This document shows positions 4,036 through 56,401 of a DNA stretch of 64,000 nucleotides, piece after piece. The stretch comes from Pseudomonadota bacterium (GTDB lineage Bacteria; Pseudomonadota; Gammaproteobacteria; Xanthomonadales; Rhodanobacteraceae), in assembly GCA_023430685.1 (NCBI GenBank), contig JAEYZH010000024.1, forward strand, positions 1,372-65,371, given 5' to 3'. The notes under the pieces are model-generated. The model had not been told where the DNA came from, did not search any database, and worked only from the letters and a program-made list of their open reading frames with translations. Position 1 is the first letter of the stretch. Each line of letters begins with the position of its first letter. Made by a program: the position numbers and the translations under genes.

Positions 4036-4051
4036 CGAGGCAGTCGTCGCT

Positions 4052-7918: not shown

Positions 7919-8032
7919 ATTTCCCCTGCGAATCATGCGCTTAGGTCGCGAATTCGCCCCTCGCAACAGTGGCGAAAACGTGCTATCGCAGAGTAACAGA
8001 ATCAAATGCTTGCGCGCCGCAACCGGAGAGCT

Positions 8033-8293: not shown

Positions 8294-8384
8294 GCGCGAA
8301 GGATATGCACGCCGACATCAGGAACTGAGACGGTCGGGACGCGGGACAGGATCCGTGGTTACAATCCATAGACAGGAGGGAGCA

Positions 8385-8750: not shown

Positions 8751-8795
8751 GCTCGCAGCCTTTGGGCTCCAAGGTCGAAGCGACCACGCGATCAC

Positions 8796-9158
8796 GTGGC
8801 TATTCCGCGGCTCATAGCTCTCACCGGCAGGCTCGGAATTGCCTTGGCAACCGTCGTAGTTGTCGGAGCGCTGCTGACCATCTCGCTCCGAGGGTGCGTC
8901 GCCGATGTACGCCAAGCGTTCACCGACGACGAGGATGAGCCGGACGTGGTGGTGGACTACTGTGACAGCGATTGCGCAGCGGAGGCAGCTGGCGAACTCT
9001 TCATGAACCGCGAATACGAATCGGCCATGACCGAATGCCAACACCGGGGGCCGGCCTTCACACTTGGCTGCACCAACTTTGTTTCTGAGCTCGAGGAGCC
9101 AGAAGTCCTCGATCGGCCCACCGCTGACGAAGAAGACGCGAGGCCATATTGGCGCTGA
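8796..9158 (+). CDS. Hypothetical membrane-anchored acidic protein at the prophage edge
   Basis: GTG start and N-terminal hydrophobic segment LGIALATVVVVGALLTISL. The region is locally lower in GC than both flanks. Convergent with the giant virion gene. No motif recognised. Confidence 0.3.
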   Translation: MAIPRLIALTGRLGIALATVVVVGALLTISLRGCVADVRQAFTDDEDEPDVVVDYCDSDCAAEAAGELFMNREYESAMTECQHRGPAFTLGCTNFVSELEEPEVLDRPTADEEDARPYWR

Positions 9159-9181
9159 CGTCGAGTGCGAACCGACGCGAA

Positions 9182-12100
9182 CTAATGAGTCGCCCGCGAA
9201 CGCGCATCCACGTCTGCTGCGAGTTCTGCACGCTCCGCGTATAGCGCTTCGAGTTCGATCCGCTTCTCGCGCGCGCTGAGCTCGCGGTCGTTCGCGACCG
9301 CCTTGATCCGCTGGTTGATCTTCTGCATGCGCTTGTTCGCGCCGGCGTAGATCGGCCGCTTCGCCAGGTCCGGATGGTCTGCCAGGTCTTCCTCGCGCGC
9401 GGTGTTTCCGGTCTTGCGAGCGTGGTTGTATGCCGCGTAGGTCTCTTCGACGTCGCCGAGGACATCATAGAAGCGCGCGACATACTTGTCCGAGTTCGCG
9501 TCGGCATTCTTCACGAAGTCGCCGGCGACGAAGACATTGTCGATCTTGGTGAGATCTCGGCGCGGGTTCGACGGCAATCCCATCGCATCTCGCAACATCA
9601 GGTCCGAGACGTTCATTGCCTGCATGCCGAGCCAGCCGAAGTAGCCCCGCACGATGTGGTCGACCTTCTTGGGTGAGACGTTCGCGACGCGACCGATCGC
9701 GACCGCGCCGGCCGTCGTGGTCGGGCCCACGCGATCCTGCGCCGGCAACCGCTCGTCGCCCATCGAATCGATCGGCGCCTGGCGGAAGGTGTCGTAGTTC
9801 GCCCATGCCTCGATCAACGGCTTCACGGCCTGCGGCACCGGGTTCATCGACAGCTGGTCGCCGAGGATGTTGGCCAGCGTGTGCGCGAAGTCCTTGGCGC
9901 GATAGTCGTCGCCGCCGACCGCCAGCTCCGTCATGCGCTCGACGACGGAGCCCATCGCCCCGACCTCGAACGGCTTCGGGATGAACAGCATCTTGTCGCC
10001 GAGCTTCACGCACCAGTAGGTGTCGCGCGCCCAGTCCGGCAGCGCCTTGTAGTCGTCGTCATCGCGCTGCAGCAGGTAGCTCAGTGCCGACGCGATTGCG
10101 ACGGCGCCGGCGACGGCAGCGAACCGTGCAGGGTTTGCGGCCGCGCCCTTGCCGAGCTTGTACGTGCCTTGGATGCGCGCATTGAGAAACGGCACGACGG
10201 CCGTCAGGAAGCGCACCGAGGCCCACTTCCCGCCCATCGTGAAGTCCATCAGGTCGCGTGCCTCGTAGCTCGCTTCGAGGTGCGTCGCGCCACGCGCGCG
10301 GGCACGCTCGTAGACCGCCGATCGGTTGATGGTTTCGGAGCGGTCGCCGACGTCGTTCCACCAGTCCCACGCCGCGCGTAGCGCGTTCTTCGCGCGTTCG
10401 GGCGTACCGAGGATCTGGGCGTCGTCGATGCCCATCTCGATCAACCGGTGCGCGTTCCGCGCCTGCTGGCCATCGTTGAGGCTGCCGAACCGAATCTTCC
10501 CGCCACCAGCGAGCATGCGCGCCGCGGTGGCGGACCCCTTCTTGGTCGCCTTCCAGCCGTTCATCATGTTGCGCAGCGGGTTGAACCCGGCGTCGTCCGA
10601 CACGGCGAGGACGGAAATGCTGTCGCGCAGGAGGTTGCGAATCCGGAAGCTGGGCGAGATCGTCACACCGGTCGTGAGCGCGTGCCGGAACCAGCGCATC
10701 GCATCCATCGCGCGGCCCTTGATGCCGCCGAAGTGCAGCGCCGTCAGCGCGTCCAGCACGAGCGGGTCGTCGACCAGGTAGTGCACCTGCTGCCCATGGT
10801 CCATGACCCAGACGCTGCCCTTCTCGGCCGAACCGATCTTCCGCGCGATACCCGTGTTCTCGGCGGCCGCGAGCGCCTTCGTCGCAGCCATGTTGCGCAT
10901 GCTGCTGGTCATCAGCATCGACCAGTTCGCCAGCGTGTTGGCGAGCAGATCCCGCAGTGGGTCCTTGCCGCCCTTCAGCGCCTTGAAGGCCTGCTGCTTC
11001 ACCAGCCCTCCGCCGACGCGCGCCGGCGAGAAGTCGGGGTTGTCCTCGGCAATGCGGTAGAACGGAACGTAGAACTCGTGCTCCCACGCTTTGCGTGACG
11101 ATGGGTCGATCAGTCCGGCTTCCTCCGCGATGTCGAGCACCGCCTTCTGGTATCGGCGGAATGCCGTGTGCGCCTTCAGGTACACCGTTCCACGGTCGCG
11201 GCCGTCGGCCATCGTCCCTTGGTTGAGAGATTTCAGTTCGGCGATTTGCTTGTCGGTGAAGTGCCGTTCGCGCCCCTCGCCCTTCAGGCGCTCGGCGCGA
11301 TTTCCGGCAACCCACGCGAGGAACAGGTCGTGCTCGCCCGCGAGGTCCGACAGGATCCCGCGCAGGCCTTGGCCATCGACGTCGACATCCAGCGCGCCGT
11401 CCGACAGCTTCGGTGTGCCATACAGAAACGCCGCCTCGAGCGCGCCGTCGGTGCCGCGCGACAGGCGCGCCTGCATGTATCCGGTGAAGTCGAGGTCCTT
11501 CAGCGGCGCGAACTGGTCGACAATGCCCTGCGTGATTCGCAGGCTTGCTCGATCCATGATCTCGCGGAAGCGGTCGCGGAGGTTCGTGATCCGCGGCGAG
11601 GCGCCAATGCTGCGCAGCGCGTCGACCTGCCCCTTCGAGAGGTGCGGCGCCGGCGCCGCGAAGCTGAAGGCCGTCGAGTTGTCGCCCGGGAGACGAACCT
11701 TGCCGTCGACCACGGCACGTCGGGCTTGACGCAGCACGTGGGCGAGATCGGCATCGGTGAGCTTCGCCAGCTTCGCGAATCCGTGCTCGCGCAACCATGC
11801 CTTGATCGCACCGATGTACTCGCGGATGCGCTGGCGAACCCCCGGCGGCCCGTTCTGCGCAAGATGCGCGGCGAGCTCGTCGAGCAGAATCGCGTTCTTC
11901 TGCGCCGCGGTCAGGTCCGCGCGCCCGAGCACGCCGCTTTCGTAGACCGAGAGGTCGATGCCATGCTTCTTGGCGTAGCGCCGAATGCCATCGATGCCGC
12001 CCATGCCCGTCGCGATTCGCTCGAGCGCTGCCGGCAGATCCTTCCCGAACACCAAGCGCATGCCCTGGTGGCCCCAGGACTCGTGGAAGATCGCTCGCTC

Positions 12101-15100
12101 GATGCCGAGCTCCGTGGCAAGATCGGGATGGCTTCGAACCAGCCAGAGACGGCCGTCATGCCACGCCGCGACTACATCGCTGCCATCCGAGCCCTGCTCG
12201 CGCGCCTCGGCTTGAAGCGCTTGCGGAAGCTCCCCGAAGGATTCGACCGCTTCAACACGCGGAGCGTTCTTCCACCCGGCGGTTGTCCGTTCGACGACCG
12301 CGTCGAGATCCACTTCGCTCGCCGTCGGGACTGATTCGGCGCGCGTCGAGCGCGACAGGAATGGCCGATCGGCGACGGTGCGCTGACCGCTGCCAGCAAC
12401 CGAGGTTGCCTTGTTCCCATCGAGGTGGATGACGTCCAGCGCGCGGATATCGCCGTCGCTCAGCAAGCGCGCGATGTTGCGGCCGGCCTCGACGTTGCGC
12501 GACACCACGATGGCTGCTGCAGCATTCGCTTCCGTCACCTGCCTCATCACATGGGCGGCGCCGGTGTCGATGTCGCCGGTGCGCAACTTGGCCATCTCCG
12601 CTTCATCAAGCGGTAGGAAGCCGACGGGCCGATGTCGGTTGTCGAGCAGCAGCACGCCAGATTCTTGGCGCTCTCGCGCGTAGCGCAGAGCATCCTGCGG
12701 GTCTGTGATCGCGGCGCGATCGTTCGGCGGCACGCGCCGCAGCGCACGCTCTTGGATTGGCACGTCTACATTGCGACGGCTGGCCGTCACGCCATCGACT
12801 ACCGTGCTCCCGTCTTCGGGGCGGAACAGCGACGCCCGTCGGTTGCCGGGCGCGACGACGATCATGCCGTGCGTCTCGATGCCAGAGCCATCCATCAGGT
12901 TGCGAAGAAGGCTCGTGATGGCTTTGTCGGCGGCGCTTTGCTCGATGACGCCCGAAGGGTGGTTGTGCGCGAACCACACGTGGCGAGCGCCAGGCACCTG
13001 CGCGACAGCGCCGAACACAGTGCCGGGGGCCACGGATGAGCCGTCGATGGTTCCGACGCTATGCCGAATGACCGCCAGAGGGCGGCTGCTCGCGTCGGCG
13101 ACGACGGCGAGCATTTGCTCCTGCGGCGACTTGCGCAGCGGCGCGATGATGTGCGCGACGTCCTGCCAGCCGGAGATGCGCTCGATCCCTGCCCGGAAGG
13201 ATCCGGTCGTTACTAGGCGGGCGTTTTGCGCAAGCGTCGCAGCTTTGCGGCGGAGAGGGATGGTGCCGACGGCGGGCGAGGCGAAGAGGTCGAGCTGACC
13301 AGATACCTCGCCTCGGGCTCCCCGTCGAGCTTGTGCACGCGTCGGATCGGCAACGCTTCCACGTTCCGACTCAGGCGATAGCGGGCGGGTTTCTCCATAG
13401 GTCGCGGCGTTCTCTCGAACTTCTCCGAGATCGATTACTTCTGGCTCTCGAACGGATTCACCAGCTTCGGCTCGCTCGTCTTGAGTTCGTTCCCGGCCAT
13501 CACTGCCAGGCCGATCAGCGCCCGGTCGAGCCTCTGCAGCAGGGCGTCCCCCTGCAGTGAAGAGCGATCCGCTCGTTCGGATTCGGTTGTCGTCTGCATT
13601 GATTCGCTCCACCTCGCCGATCGCGCGGCGAGTCACGTCCTCGGCGCTCGCCGGCGACCGACCAAACATATCACCGTTCTGCGCTGCCTGTTGCTCGGCA
13701 GCCACGGCGCGCGCCGCCTCGCGCAAGCCCGTCGCCATGCGCGAAACCGACCGCGCATTCGCGCCGAACATTCGTGCCCACTGGTCGCCGGAAGTGTCGC
13801 GCGCGATCAGGTCTCCCTGAGCGAGGAACGCTTCGATGCGCTGCCCGGACTCGCGTGCGGCACGGAGTACGTCGAAGGCAGCTGCGATGCGCGACGGATA
13901 GTCACCGAGCGACCCGGTGCGATCCACCTTCGCCCACTCTGGCGCCGCACGCACGAGCGCGCTGAGCACGTTGCGGGCATCGGGGTCCGCGTCCTCTGCC
14001 ATCGCGGCGATCATCCGGTCGCTGCCGTAGGCGCGCGCGAACACGGCCGCTCGGAGGCGGTCGAAGAACGTCTTGTTGGGCCGCCCCTCGCCATCGACCA
14101 GTTTCGCCGCTTCGTTGGCGCCGAGGTTCCGGAGGAACGCGCGATAGAACGGCGAGGCCGGGTTGGTCGACAGGTCACCGGCATCCGTTACCGGCAGTTC
14201 GTCGAGATCAGGGAGCGCTCGCGCATCCGTCCGCGCCTGCTCGGTCGGAGAGAGCCCGAGGTTCGTCGAGGCATTGGACTCGGCGCCCATGTCGCCGACG
14301 TTGTGCTCGGCGTCGTAGAGCCGGATCAGCACCGGGTTGCGCTTGCCGGCGATCGCTTCCGCGCTGACGCCGTGCAGCGCGGCGTCGTCGATCAGACCCT
14401 GCCGATACGACTCGGCCGTGCCACGCTTCCAGGCGCCCTGCAGGCCGGCCACGCGCCCATTGTTGAGCGCGCGCAGTCGAGCCTTCGCGTAATGGGCGTT
14501 CGCCGTGCCGTCCGCAGAGTGCGACGCCGCGACATCGTCGGCTTCGACCACGGCATACCGGACGGGAATGCGGCGACCGGTCGACGGCATCACGACGTGG
14601 TCCTCGCGTCCGAGGTCGGCTTCCGGCACGGCGCGCGCGGACTCGGCGGCCGAAACCATCGGTGCGCCGGAGTTCGGGTCGCGCGAAAACGACAGGCGCT
14701 GCGCATCCGGCGCGCCCGCGATGCCCTGCATCTGCGCCACGCTCGCGGCGCGGGACCGGTCGCGGTTCTGGAGCGTCAGTCCGCCGTCGGCTTCCGCTGC
14801 ACGCCCTGCAGCGCCCGGGTCTGCACCAGGCAATCCGCTGACATCTCCACCACCCGACCGCGCGGCGGCTCCGGCGTTGCTTCCGTCGCTTCCGGGCGCG
14901 GGACCACCTTGTCCGGTCCGCGCCAATGTGGTTGCTGCTCGATCATTGTTGGCTCCTTGCTGTGGTTGCTGTGCACGCCACGCCTCGAAATCGCGCCGCG
15001 CCTTGTTTCGCAGGATGACGCCACCGCCACGCTGCACGAGAACACCGCCGACGCCGGCCGCCCGAAGCGCCTTGCGCACGCGTGAAACGTCGCCTGGGAT

Positions 15101-17992
15101 GAATACCCCATCACCGTCGACACGCGCCTTGGCCAGCGTCTTTGCGTGCTCCCGTGGTACAATTGCGCCGGAGGTAGGACCAATGGAACTTGATCCGCGC
15201 AACGCCGATCCGCGCTCGCTTCCGCCGGGCACCGAATGGTTCGATGACTGGGACGCCGGCTTGATCGCGCTGCTCCCGCCAGGCACCTCGCCCCGCATGC
15301 TGGCCTTCGAAGACGGTACGTCCCGTGCGATCTTCCGCGACTCGCCGCTCGGCAAGGCTGTCGGCTCCACTCGCGAACTGACGTCGCCGGTGGAAATAGA
15401 GCGCGCCATCGTTGAAGCAGGCTTCCCTGCGACAACGTCGGCCCAAGCTGCGGCGTAGATCTCCCGCATCCGGGCTACCAACTCGGCGTTTTTTGCCTGT
15501 TCCGCCGGCGTCAGCGCGCGGTCCTCTCGCGCAGCCTTTGCGCGGATTGCGCGCTGTTCCTCGTAGAGCTTGTGCCCCGCGTCCTTCGCGCGAAGCATCT
15601 CCGGCGTGTTGATCTGCAGTTCGACCGTGTGCCCGTCGACCCTGACGTTCATATTCACGTCGCGGTAACCGCCATCGATCCCGTCCACAGACGGGTCAAG
15701 CGTGTTGCGGAACTTCGTCGGCTTCCCGAACCGGCGCTCGACAGCCGCAATCACGGCCGGCACCTGGTCGAGGCGATCGACGACGAGCGTGCCGCGAACC
15801 AGATCCTTCAACTTCGTCGGGTCATAGGTGCCGTCCTCGATGTTCCGGTAATCGGACAGCGTTTTCTCGCCGGCACGCTTCACACCCTTCAGCGGCGCGA
15901 GCATCGGCCGCTTGGAGAGGCCGAGTTCGCGAGCGATTCCCGCAACGCCACGTTCGAACGCTGGGCGCGCGGCTTCCGCGCTCTCGTAGTGCGCGCGCAG
16001 ACCGCTGCGCGTGGCGTCGTCCAGATCGGCATGCGCGTCGAGCTCGGCACCCCAGTCAGCGCGCGGCGCTTCCTTCTTCGTGTTGCCGCTCGACAGCCAT
16101 TCGCGGAACTGCCGCATGTCGCCGAACCGGCTCACCGATCCGAGGCCCTGCCATCCTTCCTCGTAGTTCGCGGCGTACCCCTCGCGCGCGTCCGTCTCGG
16201 TCGGGAAGCCGATCATGACCTTGTGCTCGTCGAACTTTCCGGTCTTGGGATCGACCTGGTTCACTACGAACACGGGGAGGTCGGCGACGTCGTCGGCGTT
16301 CGCCTCGGGGCCGAGGAACGTGTCGACGTGATCCTTGTCCTTCCCGACGGTGCCGCGGATGTATCCGTAGTGGTGCTGCAGTGGCTCCCATTCTTCGCGG
16401 CGGCGCGATCCAGCTGGGTTCTCGATGCTGATGTCGAGACCACCGATGCGCATGTGCCCCTTGCGATAGTTGCCCGCCTCTTTCTGCGCCGGCGTCGGCT
16501 CAGGGAGGTCGTTCTTCGGCGAGGTCGCCGCGGCGTGCGCGGCCGCTTCGAACTGCGACTCAGCGTCCTGGCCAGCCATCCACCACGGCGGCGCGTCGTC
16601 GTCGCGCTGCTGCGCGAGGTCTGGCTGTTCCTGCGAGTTCTCGCGGCGCGAAACCGCGCGCTCGACATCCGGCGTCAGGCCCAACTCGGCCTTGCGCTGC
16701 GCGTCCGCTTCCATTGCAGCGGTGAGGCCGAAGCGTTGCGACGGCGTAGTCGCTGCGCCGGACGGCGACACCTCGATGATTTGCGCAGGCAGCGCCAGCA
16801 CGGGAGGCTGCGCGGCTTGACCTGCATTCGGTTGCTGCTGGTCGTCCCAGACGACGCCGTCTTCTTCGCCAGCACGGTTGAGGATGTCGCGCACGCGATC
16901 GCGCGGCTCGACACCGCCATTGGATGCGCGCGGCGCGCGCGCGCGCTCGGGTGCGCCAGGCAGTGGCGCTTCCGGACGCGGGCCCAGCGCGGCTCCCATG
17001 CCGGCGCCGAGCAGCGCGGATACCGGCGCTTGGCGCGGATCGAACAGCGGTCGATCGAGCTTGTCCGGCAGGGCCTCATTGACCAGCCCGACCTGAGCCG
17101 AGTCGGCGACGACGTTCGAGCCAGCGCCCTGCAGCGCGCGCGCGATCGCAGACCCTGGCGCACTGATCGGCGCGGCGTTCACCAGCGCATTTGCGCCGAA
17201 CTCGGTCGCGGCAGCCGTCAGGGCATCGCCGGAGTCGCCGCCGGCGCGCAGAACGTCGATGCCTGTACGAGCACCCATCGCTGCGCCGGGTACGAGCGAG
17301 GCCTTCGCCGAATGCTCGAGCGCACTCGCCAAGCCGCTCCGCACTGCTTCACCAGCGGTCGCTGCACCACGCATTGCGGCCGGCGCGGCGCTTACGCCGC
17401 CGGTGAGATACATGGCGCCGATGTCGGGAATCATGCGCGTACCGGCGAACGCAAGCCGCTCGCCAAGGTCCGCGTCCTGTCGCGGCTGCAACGCGGTGTC
17501 CGCGTCGAACGCGCGGTCGACCATGTTGCGCATCCAGAAGTCGGTGGCTGCGCTGTCGCCGCGCACGAAGTCTGCGGCCGCGGCAACCGGCGCTCCGGCG
17601 AGCAGGTTCGCCGTGCCAGCCGTGCCGTGCATCCACGATCGAGGTCCCCGAACCACTGGGTTGTCGACGATGGCCTCGGCGACGGGGTTGTCGAACAGAT
17701 GGGCGAACGGATCCGCCCCTTCCATCATCGAACGCAGGCCCGGCGCGCGCGGCGCGGGCGACGACGCTTGGGTGCCGTCCACAGGCTGCGGAAGCGGCAC
17801 TTCACCCGAGGCCTGCGCCGCGGTGATCGCGGTCGACATGCCGCCGGCACGCACGTTCCCGAAGTCCGGAGCGGCATCGTCCCACTGGATCGCATCAGCG
17901 GAGATTGCTGGCGCGTCGTCCCACTGGATACCGCCCGCGGCTTGCGGCGCGTCGTCCCAGACGATGCTGTTCGGGTCAAACGGGTTGGGCAT
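9182..17992 (-). CDS. Giant (2,936 aa) polyvalent virion/ejection protein: pyrophosphatase-like + RelA/SpoT-like + ParB-like + RadC/JAB modules and a large C-terminal region
   Basis: One uninterrupted ORF starting at ATG 17992 after AAGGAAGG. Motifs: NYRKGH..IENPAGSRR..YGYIRGTVGKDKDHVDTFLG (aa ~505-640); DLVRGTLVV, GYRDVNMNV, VELQINTPEM, HKLYEE (aa ~655-830); ALNNGRVAGL (aa ~1075-1230); HNHPSG..SAADK (aa ~1590-1720). It is the last gene of the virion module. Confidence 0.9.
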   Translation of the reverse strand: MPNPFDPNSIVWDDAPQAAGGIQWDDAPAISADAIQWDDAAPDFGNVRAGGMSTAITAAQASGEVPLPQPVDGTQASSPAPRAPGLRSMMEGADPFAHLFDNPVAEAIVDNPVVRGPRSWMHGTAGTANLLAGAPVAAAADFVRGDSAATDFWMRNMVDRAFDADTALQPRQDADLGERLAFAGTRMIPDIGAMYLTGGVSAAPAAMRGAATAGEAVRSGLASALEHSAKASLVPGAAMGARTGIDVLRAGGDSGDALTAAATEFGANALVNAAPISAPGSAIARALQGAGSNVVADSAQVGLVNEALPDKLDRPLFDPRQAPVSALLGAGMGAALGPRPEAPLPGAPERARAPRASNGGVEPRDRVRDILNRAGEEDGVVWDDQQQPNAGQAAQPPVLALPAQIIEVSPSGAATTPSQRFGLTAAMEADAQRKAELGLTPDVERAVSRRENSQEQPDLAQQRDDDAPPWWMAGQDAESQFEAAAHAAATSPKNDLPEPTPAQKEAGNYRKGHMRIGGLDISIENPAGSRRREEWEPLQHHYGYIRGTVGKDKDHVDTFLGPEANADDVADLPVFVVNQVDPKTGKFDEHKVMIGFPTETDAREGYAANYEEGWQGLGSVSRFGDMRQFREWLSSGNTKKEAPRADWGAELDAHADLDDATRSGLRAHYESAEAARPAFERGVAGIARELGLSKRPMLAPLKGVKRAGEKTLSDYRNIEDGTYDPTKLKDLVRGTLVVDRLDQVPAVIAAVERRFGKPTKFRNTLDPSVDGIDGGYRDVNMNVRVDGHTVELQINTPEMLRAKDAGHKLYEEQRAIRAKAAREDRALTPAEQAKNAELVARMREIYAAAWADVVAGKPASTMARSISTGDVSSRVEPTALPSGESRKIARDVPSSKASMRGEVPGGSSAIKPASQSSNHSVPGGSERGSALRGSSSIGPTSGAIVPREHAKTLAKARVDGDGVFIPGDVSRVRKALRAAGVGGVLVQRGGGVILRNKARRDFEAWRAQQPQQGANNDRAATTLARTGQGGPAPGSDGSNAGAAARSGGGDVSGLPGADPGAAGRAAEADGGLTLQNRDRSRAASVAQMQGIAGAPDAQRLSFSRDPNSGAPMVSAAESARAVPEADLGREDHVVMPSTGRRIPVRYAVVEADDVAASHSADGTANAHYAKARLRALNNGRVAGLQGAWKRGTAESYRQGLIDDAALHGVSAEAIAGKRNPVLIRLYDAEHNVGDMGAESNASTNLGLSPTEQARTDARALPDLDELPVTDAGDLSTNPASPFYRAFLRNLGANEAAKLVDGEGRPNKTFFDRLRAAVFARAYGSDRMIAAMAEDADPDARNVLSALVRAAPEWAKVDRTGSLGDYPSRIAAAFDVLRAARESGQRIEAFLAQGDLIARDTSGDQWARMFGANARSVSRMATGLREAARAVAAEQQAAQNGDMFGRSPASAEDVTRRAIGEVERINADDNRIRTSGSLFTAGGRPAAEARPGADRPGSDGRERTQDERAEAGESVREPEVIDLGEVRENAATYGETRPLSPESERGSVADPTRAQARRGARGEVSGQLDLFASPAVGTIPLRRKAATLAQNARLVTTGSFRAGIERISGWQDVAHIIAPLRKSPQEQMLAVVADASSRPLAVIRHSVGTIDGSSVAPGTVFGAVAQVPGARHVWFAHNHPSGVIEQSAADKAITSLLRNLMDGSGIETHGMIVVAPGNRRASLFRPEDGSTVVDGVTASRRNVDVPIQERALRRVPPNDRAAITDPQDALRYARERQESGVLLLDNRHRPVGFLPLDEAEMAKLRTGDIDTGAAHVMRQVTEANAAAAIVVSRNVEAGRNIARLLSDGDIRALDVIHLDGNKATSVAGSGQRTVADRPFLSRSTRAESVPTASEVDLDAVVERTTAGWKNAPRVEAVESFGELPQALQAEAREQGSDGSDVVAAWHDGRLWLVRSHPDLATELGIERAIFHESWGHQGMRLVFGKDLPAALERIATGMGGIDGIRRYAKKHGIDLSVYESGVLGRADLTAAQKNAILLDELAAHLAQNGPPGVRQRIREYIGAIKAWLREHGFAKLAKLTDADLAHVLRQARRAVVDGKVRLPGDNSTAFSFAAPAPHLSKGQVDALRSIGASPRITNLRDRFREIMDRASLRITQGIVDQFAPLKDLDFTGYMQARLSRGTDGALEAAFLYGTPKLSDGALDVDVDGQGLRGILSDLAGEHDLFLAWVAGNRAERLKGEGRERHFTDKQIAELKSLNQGTMADGRDRGTVYLKAHTAFRRYQKAVLDIAEEAGLIDPSSRKAWEHEFYVPFYRIAEDNPDFSPARVGGGLVKQQAFKALKGGKDPLRDLLANTLANWSMLMTSSMRNMAATKALAAAENTGIARKIGSAEKGSVWVMDHGQQVHYLVDDPLVLDALTALHFGGIKGRAMDAMRWFRHALTTGVTISPSFRIRNLLRDSISVLAVSDDAGFNPLRNMMNGWKATKKGSATAARMLAGGGKIRFGSLNDGQQARNAHRLIEMGIDDAQILGTPERAKNALRAAWDWWNDVGDRSETINRSAVYERARARGATHLEASYEARDLMDFTMGGKWASVRFLTAVVPFLNARIQGTYKLGKGAAANPARFAAVAGAVAIASALSYLLQRDDDDYKALPDWARDTYWCVKLGDKMLFIPKPFEVGAMGSVVERMTELAVGGDDYRAKDFAHTLANILGDQLSMNPVPQAVKPLIEAWANYDTFRQAPIDSMGDERLPAQDRVGPTTTAGAVAIGRVANVSPKKVDHIVRGYFGWLGMQAMNVSDLMLRDAMGLPSNPRRDLTKIDNVFVAGDFVKNADANSDKYVARFYDVLGDVEETYAAYNHARKTGNTAREEDLADHPDLAKRPIYAGANKRMQKINQRIKAVANDRELSAREKRIELEALYAERAELAADVDARSRATH

Positions 17993-37226: not shown

Positions 37227-38222
37227 ATGTGCAGTATTCGGATCCGGCTTTTTGTTCTATCCATGCTCATCTACGGGTGGGCAACAACCTGTCTTGGGCA
37301 AGGCGCAGAGCCTCCTCCGCAAGCATCACAAGAAGTGTGCGCATCGGAGGAGGCGGCACTGCTGGATGTTCAAAATAGATACAAACCAATCATGGATTCT
37401 TTGGAGAAACGGGGGGCTGCCATCAGCGAAGAAGGGGACGAAACCAGCCTACTGCGGGTCGATCTCGTGTGGCGGGAAGAGAGATGGGTTTTCGACCTTC
37501 CAACGGTAAGCATGAAGACGAAAGACATGAGCCTCGACTTACCCCAGTTTTCAATGCGAAGGAAAGATATGTCCTTTGACATCGTCGAAACCTTCATGGG
37601 CACCACTGATTGCGGCAAGTATCCCGAGTTCACATGCAGCGGCTTCAAGTGTAGGGTGAAGTGGTCGGTTATACGTTGCGACCTCCCGCAGACCCGCAAG
37701 AAGCGCGTACGCATCTCGCTCGACGTCCCAGAAACCCGGTGGGATACGACCCATTTCTCGATGGATATCCCGGAGATCTCCATGCACAAACAAGAATGGA
37801 CGTTCAAGCTTCCGGACAAGGTGACTGTTGAGACCCTGGATGAACAAGTCGCGGAGATCAAGCTCAAAGGAGACGCGCTGAAGAGCGAGTCCGAAGCGGT
37901 TGTGCAAGCAATGCAGAAGGAGGTGACAGAGAGGACCAGTAGCATGCTGACCTGCCGCCGTCAGGACCTTCTCTCAAAACGATCCGGCGTCGCGTCTCAG
38001 TTCGACGCCGCGATTGCACAGTTCGATACATCGATCCAGATGATCACCGCTCAAGGGGGCAATCCGCGCGCAGTCATCAATGATCAAAAGGTCAGCGTCG
38101 ACATGCTCGCGGCAAAAGACGAATTGGTCAGGAACAAGGAGCGATCGATGGCTGAGTTTGATGCCGCGTTGAAGTCATTGGATGACGCCTCCACGAAGTC
38201 GCTGCAGGCCGTAGCCGGATAG
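37227..38222 (+). CDS. Secreted repeat-containing protein (331 aa), low-GC moron on the opposite strand
   Basis: ATG at 37227 after GAGAGGGGAA. Signal peptide MCSIRIRLFVLSMLIYGWATTCLG. About 13-aa repeats FDLPTVSMKTKDMS / LDLPQFSMRRKDMS / MDIPEISMHKQEWT, and a coiled-coil C-terminal half. GC is visibly lower than the flanks. Confidence 0.75.
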   Translation: MCSIRIRLFVLSMLIYGWATTCLGQGAEPPPQASQEVCASEEAALLDVQNRYKPIMDSLEKRGAAISEEGDETSLLRVDLVWREERWVFDLPTVSMKTKDMSLDLPQFSMRRKDMSFDIVETFMGTTDCGKYPEFTCSGFKCRVKWSVIRCDLPQTRKKRVRISLDVPETRWDTTHFSMDIPEISMHKQEWTFKLPDKVTVETLDEQVAEIKLKGDALKSESEAVVQAMQKEVTERTSSMLTCRRQDLLSKRSGVASQFDAAIAQFDTSIQMITAQGGNPRAVINDQKVSVDMLAAKDELVRNKERSMAEFDAALKSLDDASTKSLQAVAG

Positions 38223-53149: not shown

Positions 53150-53392
53150 TCAGGCCGCCCTCTTCCGGCGCACCTTCGGTGGCTTGGGCTCGCCCCAGAT
53201 GTCAGGACGGAGTTCTTCGCGCGAGACCGCGCGGCTGCTCTGCTCGTAGAGGCGCCGGACCAAGCCGCCATCGAGCTTGGGCTGGGTCGAGAGCGCCTTG
53301 CGCAGGTAGCCGATCGTGGTGCCGCAACGCTTCGCGTATGCAGCTTGGTCGTCTGGCGTCAGGGTGGACAGGTAGGCGCGCAGGGTTTCCAT
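53150..53392 (-). CDS. Cro-like HTH repressor (80 aa)
   Basis: METLRAYLSTLTPDDQAAYAKRCGTTIGYLRKALS is HTH-like. It is divergent from the CI-like gene across the operator cluster. The -10 hexamer ends 6 nt before the ATG. Confidence 0.75.
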   Translation of the reverse strand: METLRAYLSTLTPDDQAAYAKRCGTTIGYLRKALSTQPKLDGGLVRRLYEQSSRAVSREELRPDIWGEPKPPKVRRKRAA

Positions 53393-53398
53393 GCGCGG

Positions 53399-53461
53399 AT
53401 ATTACCATTCGGTAATGTTCAGTCAATACCTTTTGGTCATGTACCGTCGGGTAATTGATAC
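53399..53461. promoter_or_regulatory. Divergent promoter/operator region with three TTACC-N4-GGTAA-type operators
   Basis: ATTACCattcGGTAAT (53401-53416), AATACCttttGGTCAT (53425-53440), TGTACCgtcgGGTAAT (53440-53455). The minus-strand promoter is TTGACT (53426-53421), 16 nt, TAATAT (53404-53399). Confidence 0.8.
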
Positions 53462-53468
53462 TTCACGG

Positions 53469-53966
53469 ATGACTGACCGCGACTCCCCGATCATGGCGGC
53501 GCGCCGCAAGCGGCTGCGCGAATGGATCGACGCCCAACATGGCGGCGTGCAGGCGCAGTTTCAGAAGGCGATCGGCATCAATCAGGGAGAGCTCTCCGGC
53601 TTGCTGAACAGCAAGTCGTTCGGGGAGAAGAAGGCGATGGCCATCGAGGTGGCCGCCGCCATGCCGGATGGTTACCTGACCCGACCCTTGGATCCGGCTG
53701 AGCCGGTGTCGCAGTCCGCGAGAATCGACCGCGAGAAGATGGCCGAAGCCATCGAGGTTGCGATGGCCATGAGGGGTCCGCTGACCGCGCAGAAGGTCGC
53801 GGACGCGTACGAACTGTTGGTACGACAGGCGTCGGTGGCCGTGATCAAGCCGAAAGATCAACCGCCACGCGACCCCAAGGGGCCGAAGAGTCATGGCGTT
53901 GTCGAAGGAAGAGGTACAGGAACTGGCGCGCATTCTGGACGCGCGAGCCGGGCACGGAAGAAGTGA
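53469..53966 (+). CDS. CI-like prophage repressor candidate (165 aa, HTH, no S24 peptidase domain seen)
   Basis: RLREWIDAQHGGVQAQFQKAIGINQGELSGLLNSKSFGEKKAMAIE is HTH-like. Divergent from the cro-like gene. The 3' 74 nt overlaps the next ORF, so the exact end is uncertain. Confidence 0.65.
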   Translation: MTDRDSPIMAARRKRLREWIDAQHGGVQAQFQKAIGINQGELSGLLNSKSFGEKKAMAIEVAAAMPDGYLTRPLDPAEPVSQSARIDREKMAEAIEVAMAMRGPLTAQKVADAYELLVRQASVAVIKPKDQPPRDPKGPKSHGVVEGRGTGTGAHSGRASRARKK

Positions 53967-54366
53967 GCGGCCACGTCTGAGGCTGGTCGTTCCGCCAACA
54001 TCGAAGCTGCTGGATCCGATCTTCAGGGATGCTCACATCAAGAGGATCGTCCACCTGCAGCGCGCATACCGGCTGCAATGGTTGGTCGACCAGGCGACGT
54101 TCAACGTCGCCTCACTGTCCTGCCTCGAGGATTGCGACCTGATCCGCCTGGTCAACGACATGGAGCGTGCGCGCGAGTGCATCATGGATGGCGTGTCTTT
54201 CGAGGATGCGGGTCTTGTACGATCAGCCCTCCGAGGCGCCGGCAGTTCGTCGATCGAGGACCTGCGTGACTGCAAGATGGCCGATGAAGTGCGAATGCGC
54301 GTCGATGCGCTCTTGCGCAGTGCGCCGAAGCCTTTCGAGCGCGCGCACGACGAGGCGCCTTTCTAG
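53893..54366 (+). CDS. Hypothetical cytoplasmic protein (157 aa) co-oriented downstream of the repressor
   Basis: MALSKEEVQELARILDARAG... No motif recognised. Slightly lower GC. Sits in the rexA-equivalent position. Confidence 0.5.
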   Translation: MALSKEEVQELARILDARAGHGRSERPRLRLVVPPTSKLLDPIFRDAHIKRIVHLQRAYRLQWLVDQATFNVASLSCLEDCDLIRLVNDMERARECIMDGVSFEDAGLVRSALRGAGSSSIEDLRDCKMADEVRMRVDALLRSAPKPFERAHDEAPF

Positions 54367-54384: not shown

Positions 54385-54618
54385 ATGCGCGACGACTTGA
54401 CCCCGGGACAACTCGACGCGCTGCGCCAGCTCGGATGGCGCTCACCAGTGGAGCGCCGCGCGGCTCGGCGAAGAGTGCTCGCGCGCGAAATCGGCTTGGT
54501 GATTGCCGTCGTCGTCGGCTCTACCCTCTTCCTGAAGGCGTGTCAGTGGTCAGGCGGGCGGCCGTACGTTTCGCGCGGGGACGACAGCTACGAGTGCAAC
54601 CATCGAGGTTGCGAGTGA
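54385..54618 (+). CDS. Small single-TM protein (77 aa) ending the repressor-side operon
   Basis: TM IGLVIAVVVGSTLFL and a C-terminal Cys/His-containing tail. Its stop lies 1 nt from the convergent hydrolase stop. Confidence 0.45.
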   Translation: MRDDLTPGQLDALRQLGWRSPVERRAARRRVLAREIGLVIAVVVGSTLFLKACQWSGGRPYVSRGDDSYECNHRGCE

Positions 54619-54619
54619 A

Positions 54620-55150
54620 TCACGCTGCGGCTCTATCGCGCTCGATCAGGATGGCATCGGCTGCCGCTTCAAGGCCGTAGTTCACGCCGCGCAGGCCTGC
54701 GACGACGGTCGCCGCCCAGTCGAAATATTCCCGCTTGCGCTGGGCCGGCCAGTCCGGCGGTGCGTGCACCAAGTCGCGCAGATTCGCGATCTTGTCGGCG
54801 AGCTTTACCAGCTTCGCCTCACGTGAAAGATGCGGCGCATGCTCGACCTGCAGATCCTTCCGACGCTGCTTCGGCAACGTCTTGTCGTCGGTGACCTCGA
54901 GCACGATCGACGCAACGGCATCGTCGAACTCGGAGCACAGCTCTTCGAAGGTGGTGTCCGTGTCCTCGATCGTGTCGTGGAGCAGCGCCGCCGCAAGCAC
55001 AATCGGATCGGAAACGCCGCCCTCTTCCACCAGGATGCGGGCGACCGTTATCGGATGGTTGATGTAGGGAGAGGCTGCAGCGTCCTTGCGACGCTGGTCA
55101 CGGTGCTTGTGGGCGGCGAAGGCCGCTGCACGAAGGACGATGCTGTCCAT
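54620..55150 (-). CDS. Small alarmone hydrolase, Mesh1/SpoT-type HD domain (176 aa)
   Basis: HKHRDQRRKD..PYINHP, AALLHDTIEDTDTT, EVTDDKTLPKQRRKDLQVEHAPHLSREAKLVKLADKIANLRD. This is co-linear with my recollection of metazoan MESH1/HDDC3 and bacterial SAH. Start set at MDSIVLRAAAF (ATG 55150). Confidence 0.85.
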   Translation of the reverse strand: MDSIVLRAAAFAAHKHRDQRRKDAAASPYINHPITVARILVEEGGVSDPIVLAAALLHDTIEDTDTTFEELCSEFDDAVASIVLEVTDDKTLPKQRRKDLQVEHAPHLSREAKLVKLADKIANLRDLVHAPPDWPAQRKREYFDWAATVVAGLRGVNYGLEAAADAILIERDRAAA

Positions 55151-55308
55151 GCGGCGAATCGTAGCAGAACTGGTGCACCGCAGTCGCGGCTTATGGGCTT
55201 CCCTTGCGGGCGCGGGTGCGCTGACTTGCGGTGCGTGATCAGTGTCGCAGCGACGATCCCGTAACGGCAGCGGCATTCGCCGCGCTGCGGCGTAGGAAAT
55301 CTCCGACA

Positions 55309-55427: not shown

Positions 55428-56171
55428 TTAGCGGCGGAGTCGGTTGCCGAACTTATCCTTTTGGACCTGTCCTTTCGGCTTCTTCGCTTCAAGCTCTTGC
55501 GCAATCTCTTTGTCGCGCCTTTCTTGCCATGTGGATGCTAAATCTACGAGTTCAATGTACGCCTTGGCATTCGCGATCTGGAAATGCGAGATAAGCGGTC
55601 CCAGCACCTTCACAGCCCGGAGCACTCTCCCTGCTTGTAGGCAGAAAGCGTATTCCTCATCAACAAAGCCTGAATGAACGGCTGCGGCTAGCGACTCTAG
55701 ACAATCCAGGTACGCGCGTGCCGCGTCGCTCCATTTTGTGTTGTCAACAATCTGGTTGACCAGGTCGGCCGTAATGGCCTCTCCACCTGCATTGAAGTGT
55801 GCATCGATCTTGGACTCGTGCGCGACTTCTGCAAAGCGATCATTGGTTGCCCTGCTAGCGTCGGCGCTGAAATATCGATAGAACGTTTCGACGCGATTGA
55901 ACTCCAGATCGGCAATCTGCTTTGCTTTCGCCTCTGCATGCTGTCGGCGCGCTAGCAATACCGAAAGTAGGCCAGACGAAAGGATGAGCAACGACGCTGC
56001 CTTATACGCCGCATCGAAATAATCGCGTCCGTTTTGGGTCCCAAGACGCAGCCCTATCAGGAATAGAACACAAGCAAGACCCACAGTTCCACAGAATGGC
56101 AGCCACACGCGCGGGAGCGCGGCTGGCTGCACTTGATGCATTCGACTAGGGCCTGCATCCGCTTCACTCAT
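55428..56171 (-). CDS. Low-GC moron: 2-TM N-terminus plus DUF4760-like C-terminal domain (247 aa)
   Basis: GGAGG lies 9 nt upstream of the ATG at 56171. TMs WLPFCGTVGLACVLFLIGL and AASLLILSSGLLSVLLA. The C-terminal YLDCLESLAAAVHSGFVDEEYAF...YIELVDLASTWQER resembles DUF4760 as I recall it. Confidence 0.65.
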   Translation of the reverse strand: MSEADAGPSRMHQVQPAALPRVWLPFCGTVGLACVLFLIGLRLGTQNGRDYFDAAYKAASLLILSSGLLSVLLARRQHAEAKAKQIADLEFNRVETFYRYFSADASRATNDRFAEVAHESKIDAHFNAGGEAITADLVNQIVDNTKWSDAARAYLDCLESLAAAVHSGFVDEEYAFCLQAGRVLRAVKVLGPLISHFQIANAKAYIELVDLASTWQERRDKEIAQELEAKKPKGQVQKDKFGNRLRR

Positions 56172-56321: not shown

Positions 56322-56363
56322 TTTACCTTTTGGTATTGACATAGCATTACCGTTTGGTAATAT
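56322..56363 (+). promoter_or_regulatory. Second operator pair plus strong sigma70 promoter (PL-like) for the rightward early operon
   Basis: TTGACA (56336-56341), 16 nt, TAATAT (56358-56363). Operators TTTACCttttGGTATT (56322-56337) and ATTACCgtttGGTAAT (56346-56361) share the consensus seen at 53401-53455. Confidence 0.8.
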
Positions 56364-56401
56364 CTCTCCGTGGCCGATCGGGTCGGCCTTGGGAGAGAGT
56401 G

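Follow-up and report, generated by a model that had tools for sequence, protein, structure and literature searches.

A Mesh1-type alarmone hydrolase gene in the immunity region of a temperate phage that also encodes a Tas1-like synthetase module

Temperate phages are already known to carry virion-associated (p)ppApp synthetases together with hydrolase immunity, in the form of the Apk2-IapK/Tis1-Aph1 systems, which are MuF polymorphic toxin modules found in Bacteroides caccae, Streptococcus pneumoniae, Mannheimia and Pasteurella (PMC10083569, PMC12226406). According to the Apk2 authors, it is unknown why temperate phages carry such toxins in their virions (PMC12226406). The sections of Iyer et al. 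2017 (PMC5512222) that deal with phage polyvalent proteins describe RelA/SpoT and InPase domains within them, and predict that these proteins are packaged and injected. A toxSAS-SAH pair has been described as FaRel-ATfaRel, and PbcSpo (PVP-SE1) and PaSpo (SSU5) are stand-alone phage SAHs (PMC7229694). [quoted passage not shown] A preliminary description of the DNA studied here was not aware of any described system with a split virion-synthetase/immunity-region-hydrolase layout, a claim of novelty that is too strong given the published Apk2-IapK/Tis1-Aph1 systems (PMC10083569, PMC12226406), and its idea that the hydrolase disarms toxSAS is also not new, since phage SAHs acting against toxSAS have been published (PMC7229694).

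The stretch of DNA that we analysed in full, referred to as the window, is 64,000 nucleotides long. Phage genes run contiguously from 9.2 to 64 kb and adjoin host tRNA and uvrC genes, with the host genes (UvrC and others) beginning left of ~8 kb, and a CI/Cro-type switch is present; judged from this gene content, the element is a temperate phage or prophage. The gene under study is:

54620–55150, minus strand: Mesh1/SAHMex-type small alarmone hydrolase gene, 176 aa, recognised by HD_4, its human MESH1 match and its motifs

The encoded protein is single-domain, matches the hydrolase end of the NCBIfam spoT_relA model, and scored 68.4 bits with Pfam HD_4 (cut-off 27.2) over aa 8–143 of 176, and 33.1 bits with HD. 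The ORF contains, in order, the motifs MDSIVLRAAAFAAHKHRDQRRKD, PYINHP, LLHDTIEDT, EVTDDK and KLVKLADKIANLRD. It had been described beforehand as a Mesh1/SpoT-type enzyme, motif for motif, and this is borne out, as all catalytic motifs are intact and the best solved structure was human MESH1/HDDC3 (3nr1), with an E value of 1.8e-57 and 100/165 identical residues (61%). Drosophila Mesh1 (3nqw) matched with E 4e-46, whereas matches to other classes were much weaker (long RSH enzymes, E at least 1e-18; PaSAH 6yvc, 1.6e-8; Aph1 7smg, 2e-5), and by these comparisons the hydrolase is nearer to Mesh1 than to the PaSAH/Aph1 subfamilies. The metal-binding/catalytic residues H32, H58-D59, E62-D63, D119 and N123 are invariant in our hydrolase alignment (A3) and align to MESH1, where we take the counterparts to be H35, H61-D62, E65-D66 and D122. 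Furthermore, F11, D88-D89, L92-P93, K98, Q101, S109, W134 and Y142 show, when read by eye only, a SAHMex-like pattern at a near-constant offset from the signature residues F21, D98, D99, L102, P103, K108, Q111, S119, W145 and Y153 of that family (PMC10083569).

The features that surround the hydrolase gene in the immunity region are:

53150–53392, minus strand: Cro/YdaS-like HTH gene that starts the leftward early operon (phrog_35 transcriptional repressor HTH region, E 2e-10)
53398–53460, no strand: left operator cluster, overlapping a leftward promoter (TACC-N4-GGTA at 53403 and 53442, with an imperfect copy at 53427)
53469–53966, plus strand: CI-like repressor candidate, 165 aa, transcribed away from the cro-like gene with the operators in between
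53893–54366, plus strand: phrog_27415 protein in the repressor operon (PHROGs E 1.4e-30)
54385–54618, plus strand: predicted membrane protein of 77 aa, convergent with the hydrolase gene with abutting stop codons; the same ORF is kept in L012 (6205–6438), where it again abuts the hydrolase gene
55428–56171, minus strand: low-GC moron, DUF4760 membrane protein, 247 aa (Pfam DUF4760 E 1.1e-7; GC 57% vs ~66%)
56322–56365, no strand: right operator cluster, overlapping a rightward promoter (TACC-N4-GGTA at 56324 and 56348; TTGACA-16-TAATAT at 56336–56363)

Exact TACC-N4-GGTA sites occur four times in the 64 kb, against 0.03 expected, and all of them fall at 53403/53442 and 56324/56348. They are embedded in 33-nt inverted arms (53398–53430 and 56332–56364), and an outward sigma-70-like promoter overlaps each cluster (53426 to 53399 on the minus strand; 56336–56363 on the plus strand). 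The hydrolase gene therefore lies between two operator clusters, as the preliminary description had proposed, and we likewise found it to be convergent with the repressor operon, which runs on the plus strand through the CI-like gene, the phrog_27415 gene and the 77-aa ORF, the stop codon of the last abutting that of the hydrolase gene. The CI-like candidate weakly matched the phage repressor CI (7nkv, E 0.048), with no match in Pfam or PHROGs, and PADLOC detected no known defence protein among ten proteins of the immunity region and morons. The interval that separates the hydrolase gene from the DUF4760 gene contains:

55158–55166, minus strand: extended -10-like element TGCTACGAT, with 7 nt between it and the start codon of the hydrolase gene
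55175–55234, no strand: inverted repeat GCACCGCAGTC ... GACTTGCGGTGC ahead of the hydrolase gene, conserved in both arms in L012
55305–55335, minus strand: intrinsic terminator after the DUF4760 gene, with a stem of 9 pairs (7 GC), a loop of 4 and then TTTCTTGTCG

The terminator stem reads from 55335 to 55314 on the minus strand and is followed by TTTTCTT, so that the hydrolase gene is separated from the upstream moron and has its own transcription-unit boundaries, again as previously described. Over the ~100 nt upstream of the hydrolase gene, conservation between the related phage contig L012 and the window is ~90%, and the -10-like element is present in L012 as TGCTACTAT at equal spacing. 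This element was missed by a stringent promoter scan. There is no Shine-Dalgarno sequence before the hydrolase ATG and, with the -10-like element only 7 nt away, the mRNA is possibly leaderless. We also considered whether this upstream region forms a riboswitch or another RNA element, and rejected the idea, given no match in Rfam and a fold z-score of only -1.3.

The contig L012 (20.7 kb, without virion genes) encodes a protein (P0002) that is 80% identical to the window hydrolase, and there the position, upstream region and 77-aa neighbour of the gene are kept although the repressor genes differ and the DUF4760 gene is missing, which suggests selection in phage. Apart from this, the nearest relatives are cell-type Mesh1-like proteins with 60–72% identity, of which there are >8000 at E<1e-20, whereas identity to the phage clades that are linked to a synthetase was 42–52%. 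In a neighbour-joining (NJ) tree the window hydrolase nests inside the cell-type clade, among proteins with 65–72% identity to it, and 80 metagenome loci of these cell-type relatives contained no phage neighbours and no synthetase module. One 72%-identical hydrolase is encoded in an integrase/primase island of Ralstonia pseudosolanacearum, beside PAAR/Tae4 genes. The window protein thus appears, from its relatives, to represent an independent capture of a cell-type Mesh1/SAHMex enzyme and, as it falls outside the synthetase-linked phage clades, it could be an unrelated moron.

At the other end of the prophage lies the gene for a giant polyvalent protein, with these features:

9182–17992, minus strand: giant polyvalent virion-module protein, 2936 aa, the outermost gene at the left prophage end (Pfam InPase, ddrB-ParB, RadC and LPD38)
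9545–10060, minus strand: LPD38 domain, aa 2645–2816, a hallmark of phage-type polyvalent proteins (PF18857, 131.4 bits)
15413–16075, minus strand: Tas1/Apk-like (p)ppApp-synthetase-type module, aa 640–860 (phmmer and family profile matches to Tas1)
16094–16489, minus strand: InPase domain, aa 502–633, directly N-terminal to the synthetase module (PF18823, 150.3 bits)

The giant gene is downstream of the tail-fibre and internal-virion-protein genes and closes that operon; from this gene position only, we infer that the virion contains the protein and carries it into the cell together with the DNA. The hydrolase gene and the giant gene are ~36.6 kb apart in different transcription units, an arrangement that speaks against an antidote role. 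An alarmone-synthetase-type module had been placed in the giant protein in the earlier account, and its matches to Tas1 demonstrate one at about that place (15413–16075). As a single sequence the module matched Tas1 (6ox6) with a phmmer E value of 1.6e-9, and a profile of its family, which has 1603 representatives, gave E 1.7e-28 for Tas1 compared with 4e-5 for SaSAS (8vx3) and 4e-4 for RelA, so that by profile comparison the module is nearer to the (p)ppApp than to the (p)ppGpp synthetases. Residues K68, R72, K76, D96, R99, R143, E157, Q159 and Y176 (module numbering) are invariant, and the synthetase motifs K68/R72/K76, D96-x-x-R99, G141-Y142-R143, E157-x-Q159 and H173-x-x-Y176 vary little or not at all across 30 members and align to Tas1. 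The window module scored 13.1 bits (E 0.12) with Pfam RelA_SpoT (PF04607), below the cut-off of 27, whereas its homologues in phage PHB04 (gp034, 30.6 bits) and contig L081 (35.3 bits) pass, which makes its homology to RelA_SpoT transitive. Going by its sequence, the module might conceivably catalyse tRNA pyrophosphorylation or (p)ppGpp synthesis. Pfam revealed no MuF domain in the giant protein, in which the module is internal (aa 640–860 of 2936), and the top 150 module-bearing proteins contained no fused hydrolase domain. Relatives of the giant protein share its C-terminal half. Over its last 686 aa it shows 56% identity to its counterpart in Achromobacter phage CF418P1, which by this protein is the nearest cultured relative and has neither the module nor any hydrolase, an absence of both that accords with an antidote role.

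Hydrolase matches were present in 48 of 50,697 phage records (~0.1%) and the synthetase module was far rarer (~1–2 phage records), so that chance co-occurrence of the two is unlikely. Bordetella phage vB_BbrM_PHB04 was the only cultured phage with a clear module match (E 2e-11; 33% identity to the window module, tblastn E 6.5e-15), and was the best phage match for the hydrolase as well (52% identity). There the portal gene is followed by gp034, whose C-terminus carries a RelA_SpoT domain, and then by a 69-aa ORF and the hydrolase (gp034-gp033-gp032). In IMG/VR, at least 27 contigs carried a synthetase, often a small ORF, and then a hydrolase. Of the best 80 loci with a Mesh1-like hydrolase, 10 had a module-bearing protein just upstream on the same strand, and the triad of synthetase, small ORF and hydrolase was detected on 12 further contigs. 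The triads (L065, L069, L074, L080, L081, L250-L259, L262 and L268) are contiguous and co-oriented, and the three synthetase carriers that were checked are portal fusions. Among 31 genomic module loci, six had an HD hydrolase-like ORF at most ~0.3 kb downstream, and one carrier was a CdiA toxin (L147). To our knowledge, none of the PHB04 or triad modules has been characterised. Nonetheless, with relatives of both families adjacent in PHB04 and in many uncultured phage contigs, a functional link between hydrolase and module in the window is plausible from gene neighbourhood.

The locus scans used narrower alignments, as the 30-sequence module alignment was too diverse. With tblastn and HMM searches we found no homologue in the window of the small inter-gene ORF or of an IapK-like immunity protein. 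The module-bearing polyvalent-protein relatives L134-L136 and L138 had no hydrolase within the short flanks available, and IMG/VR contigs with the giant-protein module and those with a hydrolase did not overlap among the matches listed (best 80 hydrolase loci per list, short flanks); like the missing small ORF, these absences count against an antidote role. The closest relatives of the giant protein (P0125, P0158 and P0130) are on contigs of 12–18 kb that end before any immunity region. IMG/VR scans with the single window sequences returned no module relative and only hydrolases of at most 61% identity, a word-index protein search gave one weak module relative and nothing with the module profile A1, and megablast of the 50–60 kb region against cultured phages gave only a 93-nt methylase match.

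On balance, we regard it as an even proposition that the hydrolase acts as an enzymatic antidote, or immunity protein, to the Tas1-like pyrophosphokinase module of its own phage. This reading starts from what is established at the level of sequence, namely what the two domains are, how the genes are arranged and that the two families are repeatedly linked in other phages, and from these we infer the enzymatic activities, packaging and injection, timing of expression and the protective roles as follows. The 2936-aa polyvalent protein would be synthesised late, packaged and delivered with the DNA, whereupon its module (aa 640–860) would move pyrophosphate from ATP onto the 3'-OH of ATP/ADP to form (p)ppApp, so that ATP would be depleted and the cell would stall. 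The hydrolase, an enzyme of Mesh1 type, would then strip the 3'-pyrophosphate and restore ATP/ADP. As its gene lies in the immunity region and has a conserved promoter-like element of its own and no repressor operator, it is probably made both in the lysogen and during infection. A lysogen would in this way be shielded from the synthetase of superinfecting kin and from other (p)ppApp toxins, a producing cell would be shielded while the giant protein accumulates, and a newly infected cell would be shielded as the injected pulse is ended. Protection by the hydrolase alone may be only partial, given that hydrolase turnover is <1000 per min compared with 180,000 per min for Apk1 (PMC12691689).

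A narrower version, which we consider possible but rather doubtful, is that the hydrolase confers enzymatic superinfection immunity independently of the repressor. A promoter of its own in the immunity region, possibly leaderless, would drive it constitutively in the lysogen, where it would destroy the (p)ppApp made by the few injected synthetases of kin and by any other (p)ppApp toxin. In this lineage, the acquisition of a Mesh1/SAHMex gene from a host would have freed immunity from its linkage to the toxin gene. The three hypotheses of the preliminary description, namely defence against superinfecting siblings, protection of the producing cell and disarming of host toxSAS, would look the same in the sequence.

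The hydrolase could instead act independently of the phage synthetase, in counter-defence or host takeover that permits phage replication, and such a role has been proposed for phage SAHs, which, like human MESH1, neutralise all five toxSAS classes (PMC7229694). Its targets would then be (p)ppGpp, (p)ppApp or tRNA 3'-pyrophosphate arising from toxSAS abortive infection of the host (CapRel, FaRel or PhRel types) or from the stringent response. Many phages carry SAHs without the module (48 phage records against ~1–2 with it), and no module occurs within 10 kb of most of the best 80+80 hydrolase loci in IMG/VR. We nevertheless judge this unlikely, because a counter-defence gene is expected in the early lytic operon and the window gene is flanked by the operators and runs towards the repressor operon, and because it would leave unexplained why Mesh1-like hydrolases are so strongly and repeatedly linked to this synthetase family. 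Lysogenic conversion, whereby the prophage hydrolase would guard its host from the (p)ppApp-synthetase toxins of competitors (T6SS Tas1/Apk1, CDI) and not from phage proteins, involves the same biochemistry as the antidote reading, and the two are compatible. Pointing towards it are the homology of the module to the T6SS effector Tas1, against which PaSAH partly protects (PMC10083569), the use of the same domain as the C-terminal toxin of CdiA (L147) with a hydrolase-like ORF downstream, the PAAR/Tae4 neighbours of the Ralstonia enzyme, and the position of the gene beside the DUF4760 moron in a presumably lysogen-expressed region. However, it does not account for the rare module in the very same prophage, and we hold it to be distinctly unlikely as an account in its own right.

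The enzyme might also be a captured host housekeeping moron with a general metabolic effect, on basal (p)ppGpp or as an NADPH phosphatase like metazoan MESH1, unrelated to any toxin. The abundance of cell-type relatives, the nesting of the hydrolase among them in the NJ tree and the 80 metagenome loci lacking phage neighbours or module are all in keeping with this. However, a second phage, whose hydrolase is 80% identical, retains the gene's position, its upstream region and its neighbour, which suggests selection in the phage, and co-residence with a Tas1-like module would have to be a coincidence despite the scarcity of hydrolases in phage records, so that we find this very unlikely.

If an antidote is indeed kept apart from its toxin in the lysogeny control region, protection of the producing cell and protection of the lysogen could naturally be addressed as separate questions, and the layout would permit a test of whether injected synthetases serve host takeover, rival exclusion or both. 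The loci examined here show that Mesh1/SAHMex-like hydrolases, and not only Aph1, are regular downstream partners of Tas1-like domains on portal-fused or portal-adjacent phage proteins, including that of PHB04, a partnership not reported in the papers cited here. This partnership suggests a biological role for the bacterial SAHMex family and, were superinfection immunity the correct reading, a shield against (p)ppApp toxins would be the first physiological role for this widespread family.

When compared with known systems, the window resembles Apk2-IapK-Aph1 in being a temperate phage with a head- or virion-associated carrier of a Tas1-like (p)ppApp synthetase domain and in encoding an HD-domain hydrolase, which by analogy could regenerate ATP from pppApp and provide 'universal' enzymatic immunity. 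However, Apk2 has a MuF N-terminus (SPP1 gp7) and a C-terminal toxin, whereas the window has an internal module in a polyvalent protein of 2936 aa; no counterpart of the IapK/Tis1 binding immunity was found; the hydrolase is Mesh1/SAHMex-type and not Aph1-type (7smg E 2e-5 vs 1.8e-57 for MESH1); and it is encoded ~36.6 kb away, beyond structural and early genes, in place of directly downstream. PHB04 and the triads share the same synthetase family and the same Mesh1-like hydrolase family (49–52% identity), and in PHB04 the synthetase carrier adjoins the portal gene. Their three genes are contiguous and co-oriented with a conserved ~70-aa ORF between, whereas the window genes are split and the small ORF is absent, and their hydrolases belong to another clade than the cell-type clade of the window enzyme.

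The polyvalent proteins in the relevant sections of Iyer et al. (PMC5512222) likewise combine InPase, a RelA/SpoT-type NTase, ddrB-ParB and LPD38 in one virion-module giant, and those sections link the RelA/SpoT domain to no hydrolase gene at another genomic site. FaRel-ATfaRel is analogous to the proposed pair in that the product of the toxin would be degraded with no protein contact, but it is a bicistronic, cytoplasmic TA toxin system, whereas the window has separate transcription units ~36.6 kb apart and a virion-protein domain. Stand-alone phage SAHs are broadly cross-neutralising, although PbcSpo/PaSpo belong to another subfamily than the Mesh1-like window hydrolase. Tas1(Apk1) of Pseudomonas aeruginosa is the closest solved relative of the module, from which toxicity by (p)ppApp synthesis and ATP depletion would be expected; Tas1-Tis1 is delivered by a T6SS, whereas delivery by a phage virion is proposed here, with no PAAR domain and no Tis1 homologue. 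Pairing of a toxin with an enzymatic antidote is therefore already known in phages and the window layout is an unusual split, in which the features that appear to be new are a polyvalent protein as the synthetase carrier, a separately acquired hydrolase of the cell-type Mesh1/SAHMex kind, and the unlinked genes, with the hydrolase in the immunity region.

The ORF at 54620-55150 (-) encodes a 176-aa protein and has a GC3 of 0.78, as is usual for genuine genes in this 67% GC window. Using Pfam we matched it to HD_4 with 68.4 bits (cut-off 27.2) and also to HD, and the NCBIfam RelA/SpoT model aligned to it at the hydrolase end of the model. Among all PDB sequences the top match was human MESH1/HDDC3 (3nr1, E 1.8e-57; 100 of 165 aligned positions identical, 61%), followed by Drosophila Mesh1 (E 4e-46) and the long RSH enzymes (~1e-18), with PaSAH (6yvc, 1.6e-8) and Aph1 (7smg, 2e-5) far below MESH1. 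The metal-binding/catalytic residues H32, H58-D59, E62-D63, D119 and N123 were invariant when the protein was aligned with its phage and cellular relatives. This confirms the preliminary description of a Mesh1-type hydrolase at this locus, with every motif listed there.

The 2936-aa giant protein (9182-17992, -) contains Pfam InPase, ddrB-ParB, RadC and LPD38 domains, which mark it as a phage-type polyvalent protein as defined by Iyer et al. 2017 (PMC5512222). Its residues 640-860 gave no significant match to Pfam RelA_SpoT (13.1 bits) and matched, with E 1.6e-9, the toxin domain of the T6SS effector Tas1, a (p)ppApp synthetase. An exhaustive HMMER search recovered 1603 cluster representatives of this module family at E<=1e-3 and 625 at E<=1e-10, the module being set in giants of 2000-3800 aa with a common LPD38 C-terminal half, in proteins of 600-900 aa, or in solo proteins of 190-300 aa. 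A 30-member profile retrieved Tas1 with E 1.7e-28, then SaSAS (4e-5) and RelA (4e-4), and the basic ATP-binding residues, catalytic Asp, GYR motif and ExQ motif were invariant across the 30-member alignment. Because of the profile match to Tas1 and these invariant motifs, the module is best described as a Tas1/Apk-like pyrophosphokinase, with (p)ppApp as its predicted product; the Tas1 matches bear out the earlier proposal of an alarmone-synthetase-type module inside the giant protein. An InPase domain (16094-16489, -) lies directly N-terminal to the module, and the same order in the database proteins P0158, P0167 and P0207 (the last a 422-aa two-domain protein) hints at a functional couple. 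The RadC-like JAB domain of the giant protein (12827-13174, -) is also present in 7 of 150 relatives.

We assessed linkage of the two families in other phages and genomes. In 50,697 cultured phage records a clear module relative was found only in Bordetella phage PHB04 (two records, one genome), with one extra weak match (E 2e-4) from a family-consensus search. PHB04 is also the top phage match of the hydrolase (52% identity), and in this phage gp034, the gene after the portal, has a C-terminal RelA_SpoT domain (30.6 bits), with a 69-aa ORF and the hydrolase gp032 next in order. Among the 80 top-scoring Mesh1-like hydrolase loci in IMG/VR, 10 had a module-bearing protein encoded just upstream on the same strand, and a scan from PHB04-clade hydrolases gave at least 12 further contigs with the synthetase, small ORF and hydrolase in that order. 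A second IMG/VR group has the module fused to the portal C-terminus. Loci of both groups, PHB04 included, were:

L025 3207-5525, L072 228-2510, L076 4782-7061: portal (Pfam Phage_portal_3) with C-terminal Tas1-like module; Mesh1-like hydrolase 2-3 kb downstream
PHB04 gp033 (L001 5564-5773), L065, L069, L074, L079: ~70-aa ORF between synthetase and Mesh1-like hydrolase genes
L080, L081, L250-L259, L262, L268: further ~70-aa ORFs, always between synthetase-bearing and hydrolase genes

The ~70-aa middle ORF, conserved in seven loci of the first IMG/VR set with the consensus M.YIENEGALF...VW...G.F.PY.G, is by analogy probably a binding immunity protein like IapK/Tis1 and appears undescribed so far. 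In species-representative genomes an HD hydrolase-like ORF lay at most ~0.3 kb downstream at 6 of 31 module loci, one carrier being a CdiA contact-dependent inhibition toxin, and L053/L163 showed a MuF-module protein of the canonical type accompanied by an Aph1-like hydrolase. Achromobacter phage CF418P1 encodes the nearest cultured relative of the giant protein, 56% identical across the C-terminal 686 aa; this protein carries InPase and LPD38 and lacks the synthetase module, and no hydrolase was found anywhere in the 58-kb genome of the phage. The adjacencies in PHB04, IMG/VR and genomes, and the lack of both in CF418P1, indicate that the two families are genetically coupled far beyond chance, in the layout of a polymorphic toxin and its enzymatic immunity protein. 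The co-occurrence in related phages, on which the preliminary description had made its pairing depend, is thus positive at the family level.

In Pseudomonas sp. PIC25 (L147) the module is the C-terminal toxin of a 3006-aa CdiA with a TPS domain and haemagglutinin repeats (1556-10573), and an HD hydrolase-like ORF (10766-11215) directly follows at the place expected for the CdiI immunity gene. Two ~87-kb IMG/VR contigs of isolate genomes, L261 (=L070) and L262, have near-identical PHB04-clade hydrolases, with the synthetase and small ORF upstream in L262 only; in L261 the toxin may have been lost or disrupted and the hydrolase retained.

Within the window, host DNA occupies the left 8 kb, where UvrC has a Dokdonella sp. 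MAG protein as cluster-mate at >=90% identity, and phage genes take up everything from 9.2 kb onwards:

Left host part: three tRNA genes
Left host part, after the tRNA genes: UvrC, thioredoxin/NHL protein and low-molecular-weight phosphatase genes
Phage part: giant gene, tail fibre, internal virion protein, major head protein, portal and large terminase
Phage part: two DNA methyltransferase genes
Phage part: rightward operon of RecE-like exonuclease, RNase T-like exonuclease and HNH endonuclease
53469-53966, +, between the operator clusters: CI-like gene (a phage CI structure matched weakly, E 0.048)
Between the operator clusters, +: phrog_27415 gene
Between the operator clusters, -: hydrolase gene and low-GC DUF4760 gene
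54385-54618, +, between the operator clusters: 77-aa membrane-protein ORF (6205-6438 in the related phage contig L012)
55428-56171, -: the DUF4760 gene named above, for a membrane protein of 247 aa (GC 57% vs 66%; own terminator)

The operator motif TACC-N4-GGTA occurs at exactly four sites in the 64 kb (53403, 53442, 56324 and 56348) against 0.03 expected, all within one pair of 33-nt inverted arms, and a predicted outward-facing sigma-70-like promoter overlaps each cluster. The 64-kb motif search gave no operator near the hydrolase gene, and the terminator scan found an intrinsic terminator (stem 55335-55314 plus T-run) dividing it from the DUF4760 gene and none between it and the convergent repressor operon. 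Two operator clusters, a convergent repressor operon and an upstream terminator had been described at the outset, and the scans agree with this layout. The DUF4760 gene, inserted into the immunity region beside the hydrolase gene and missing from L012, has no PADLOC or PHROG match and looks like a moron. The 77-aa ORF, whose product is hydrophobic in the middle and has the motif CxHRGCE at the C-terminal side, converges on the hydrolase gene with abutting stop codons, a pairing kept in L012, and may be functionally tied to it.

A 236-aa ORF of low GC (56%) on the opposite strand (37512-38222, +), located between the genes for the portal and the large terminase, has no PHROGs or PADLOC match and is probably another moron. 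Host genes start ~1.2 kb past the giant gene (7918-9182), and no integrase was seen at this prophage end in the window; in the relative L134 an integrase follows the giant gene (13323-14189). Presumably the opposite prophage end, beyond the 64 kb, holds the integrase and the attachment site.

In the protein database the exact hydrolase occurs only on contigs of this same phage, with one relative, P0002, 80% identical. Its gene is on L012 (20.7 kb), flanked as in the window by the RecE/YqaJ operon on one side and the repressor side on the other, where the genes differ. The 100 nt 5' of the two hydrolase genes are ~90% identical and include, 7 nt ahead of the start codon, an extended -10-like TGCTACnAT, whereas a ribosome-binding site is lacking in both phages; a promoter of its own and perhaps a leaderless mRNA are thus predicted for the gene. 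The conserved stretch also holds an 11-12 nt inverted repeat, GCACCGCAGTC / GACTTGCGGTGC (55175-55185 and 55223-55234), distinct from the TACC-N4-GGTA operators, which could be a site for another regulator; no Rfam family or significant RNA fold was detected upstream of the hydrolase. A -10-like hexamer stands 6-7 nt ahead of the start codon of both the CI-like gene (in 53457-53469) and the hydrolase gene (in 55150-55166), neither of which has a Shine-Dalgarno sequence; by eye these starts resemble the leaderless cI mRNA of lambda PRM. Its position between the operators, the lack of an operator of its own and the conserved promoter-like element suggest that the hydrolase is expressed in the lysogen.

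Several observations stand against a direct pairing in this phage. The module and hydrolase genes are 36.6 kb apart, and no homologue of the small immunity ORF was found in the window. Module-carrying polyvalent-protein relatives showed no hydrolase within their short contigs or 10-kb flanks. The window hydrolase and P0002 fall outside the synthetase-linked phage clades (42-52% identity) and the former nests, at 60-72% identity, among abundant cell-type Mesh1-like proteins (>8000 at E<1e-20), a placement with which an NJ tree without support values agrees; at 80 metagenome loci these cell-type relatives had neither module nor phage neighbours, and a 72%-identical relative is on a Ralstonia pseudosolanacearum integrase/primase island. 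This nesting indicates that the phage lineage captured a host-type hydrolase gene, which is compatible with convergent recruitment as an antidote and also with an unrelated moron. The Ralstonia islands (L014-L016) also contain a resolvase; one variant has a MuF_C protein and another adjoins PAAR/Tae4 T6SS genes.

We regard as the most probable reading, at about even odds, that the hydrolase serves the Tas1-like module of this phage as an enzymatic immunity partner. A pool in the lysogen could then cope with the few synthetase molecules from a superinfecting virion, the producing cell would also be helped, and in a newly infected cell the hydrolase could end the synthetase pulse. Human Mesh1 cut Apk1 killing ~100-fold, although hydrolase turnover is far slower than that of Apk1 (PMC12691689). 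All toxSAS tested were neutralised by human MESH1 and stand-alone phage SAHs; SAHs were noted in 90 prophage regions, and a counter-defence role was proposed (PMC7229694). Among the rivals, a counter-defence or alarmone-manipulating role independent of the module seems unlikely, lysogenic conversion against competitors' (p)ppApp toxins quite unlikely, and a metabolic moron, which the host-type origin would fit, improbable. These readings share a common biochemistry and are not fully exclusive.

The original observation thus stands and its interpretation is supported in part, whereas its claim of novelty goes too far. Temperate-phage MuF polymorphic toxins carry a C-terminal (p)ppApp synthetase, Apk2, followed by an IapK/Tis1-like binding immunity protein and Aph1, a hydrolase that restores ATP and gives cross-protection from diverse synthetases (PMC10083569, PMC12226406). 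In 2017 RelA/SpoT and InPase domains were described in phage polyvalent proteins, which were predicted to be packaged and injected (PMC5512222). SAHMex, a bacterial Mesh1-like (p)ppApp-specific enzyme, represents a separate (p)ppApp hydrolase family whose role was called unknown (PMC10083569); as a by-product, our survey shows Mesh1/SAHMex-like hydrolases to be regular partners of Tas1-like domains on portal-fused and portal-adjacent phage proteins, in the cultured phage PHB04 among others. The pairing in the window is not a new kind of system. It differs from Apk2-IapK-Aph1 in its carrier, a polyvalent protein with an internal module, in its hydrolase, which is cell-type and Mesh1/SAHMex-like and not Aph1, in its immunity, as a binding immunity protein was not found here, and in its split layout, the hydrolase gene lying in the region that controls lysogeny.
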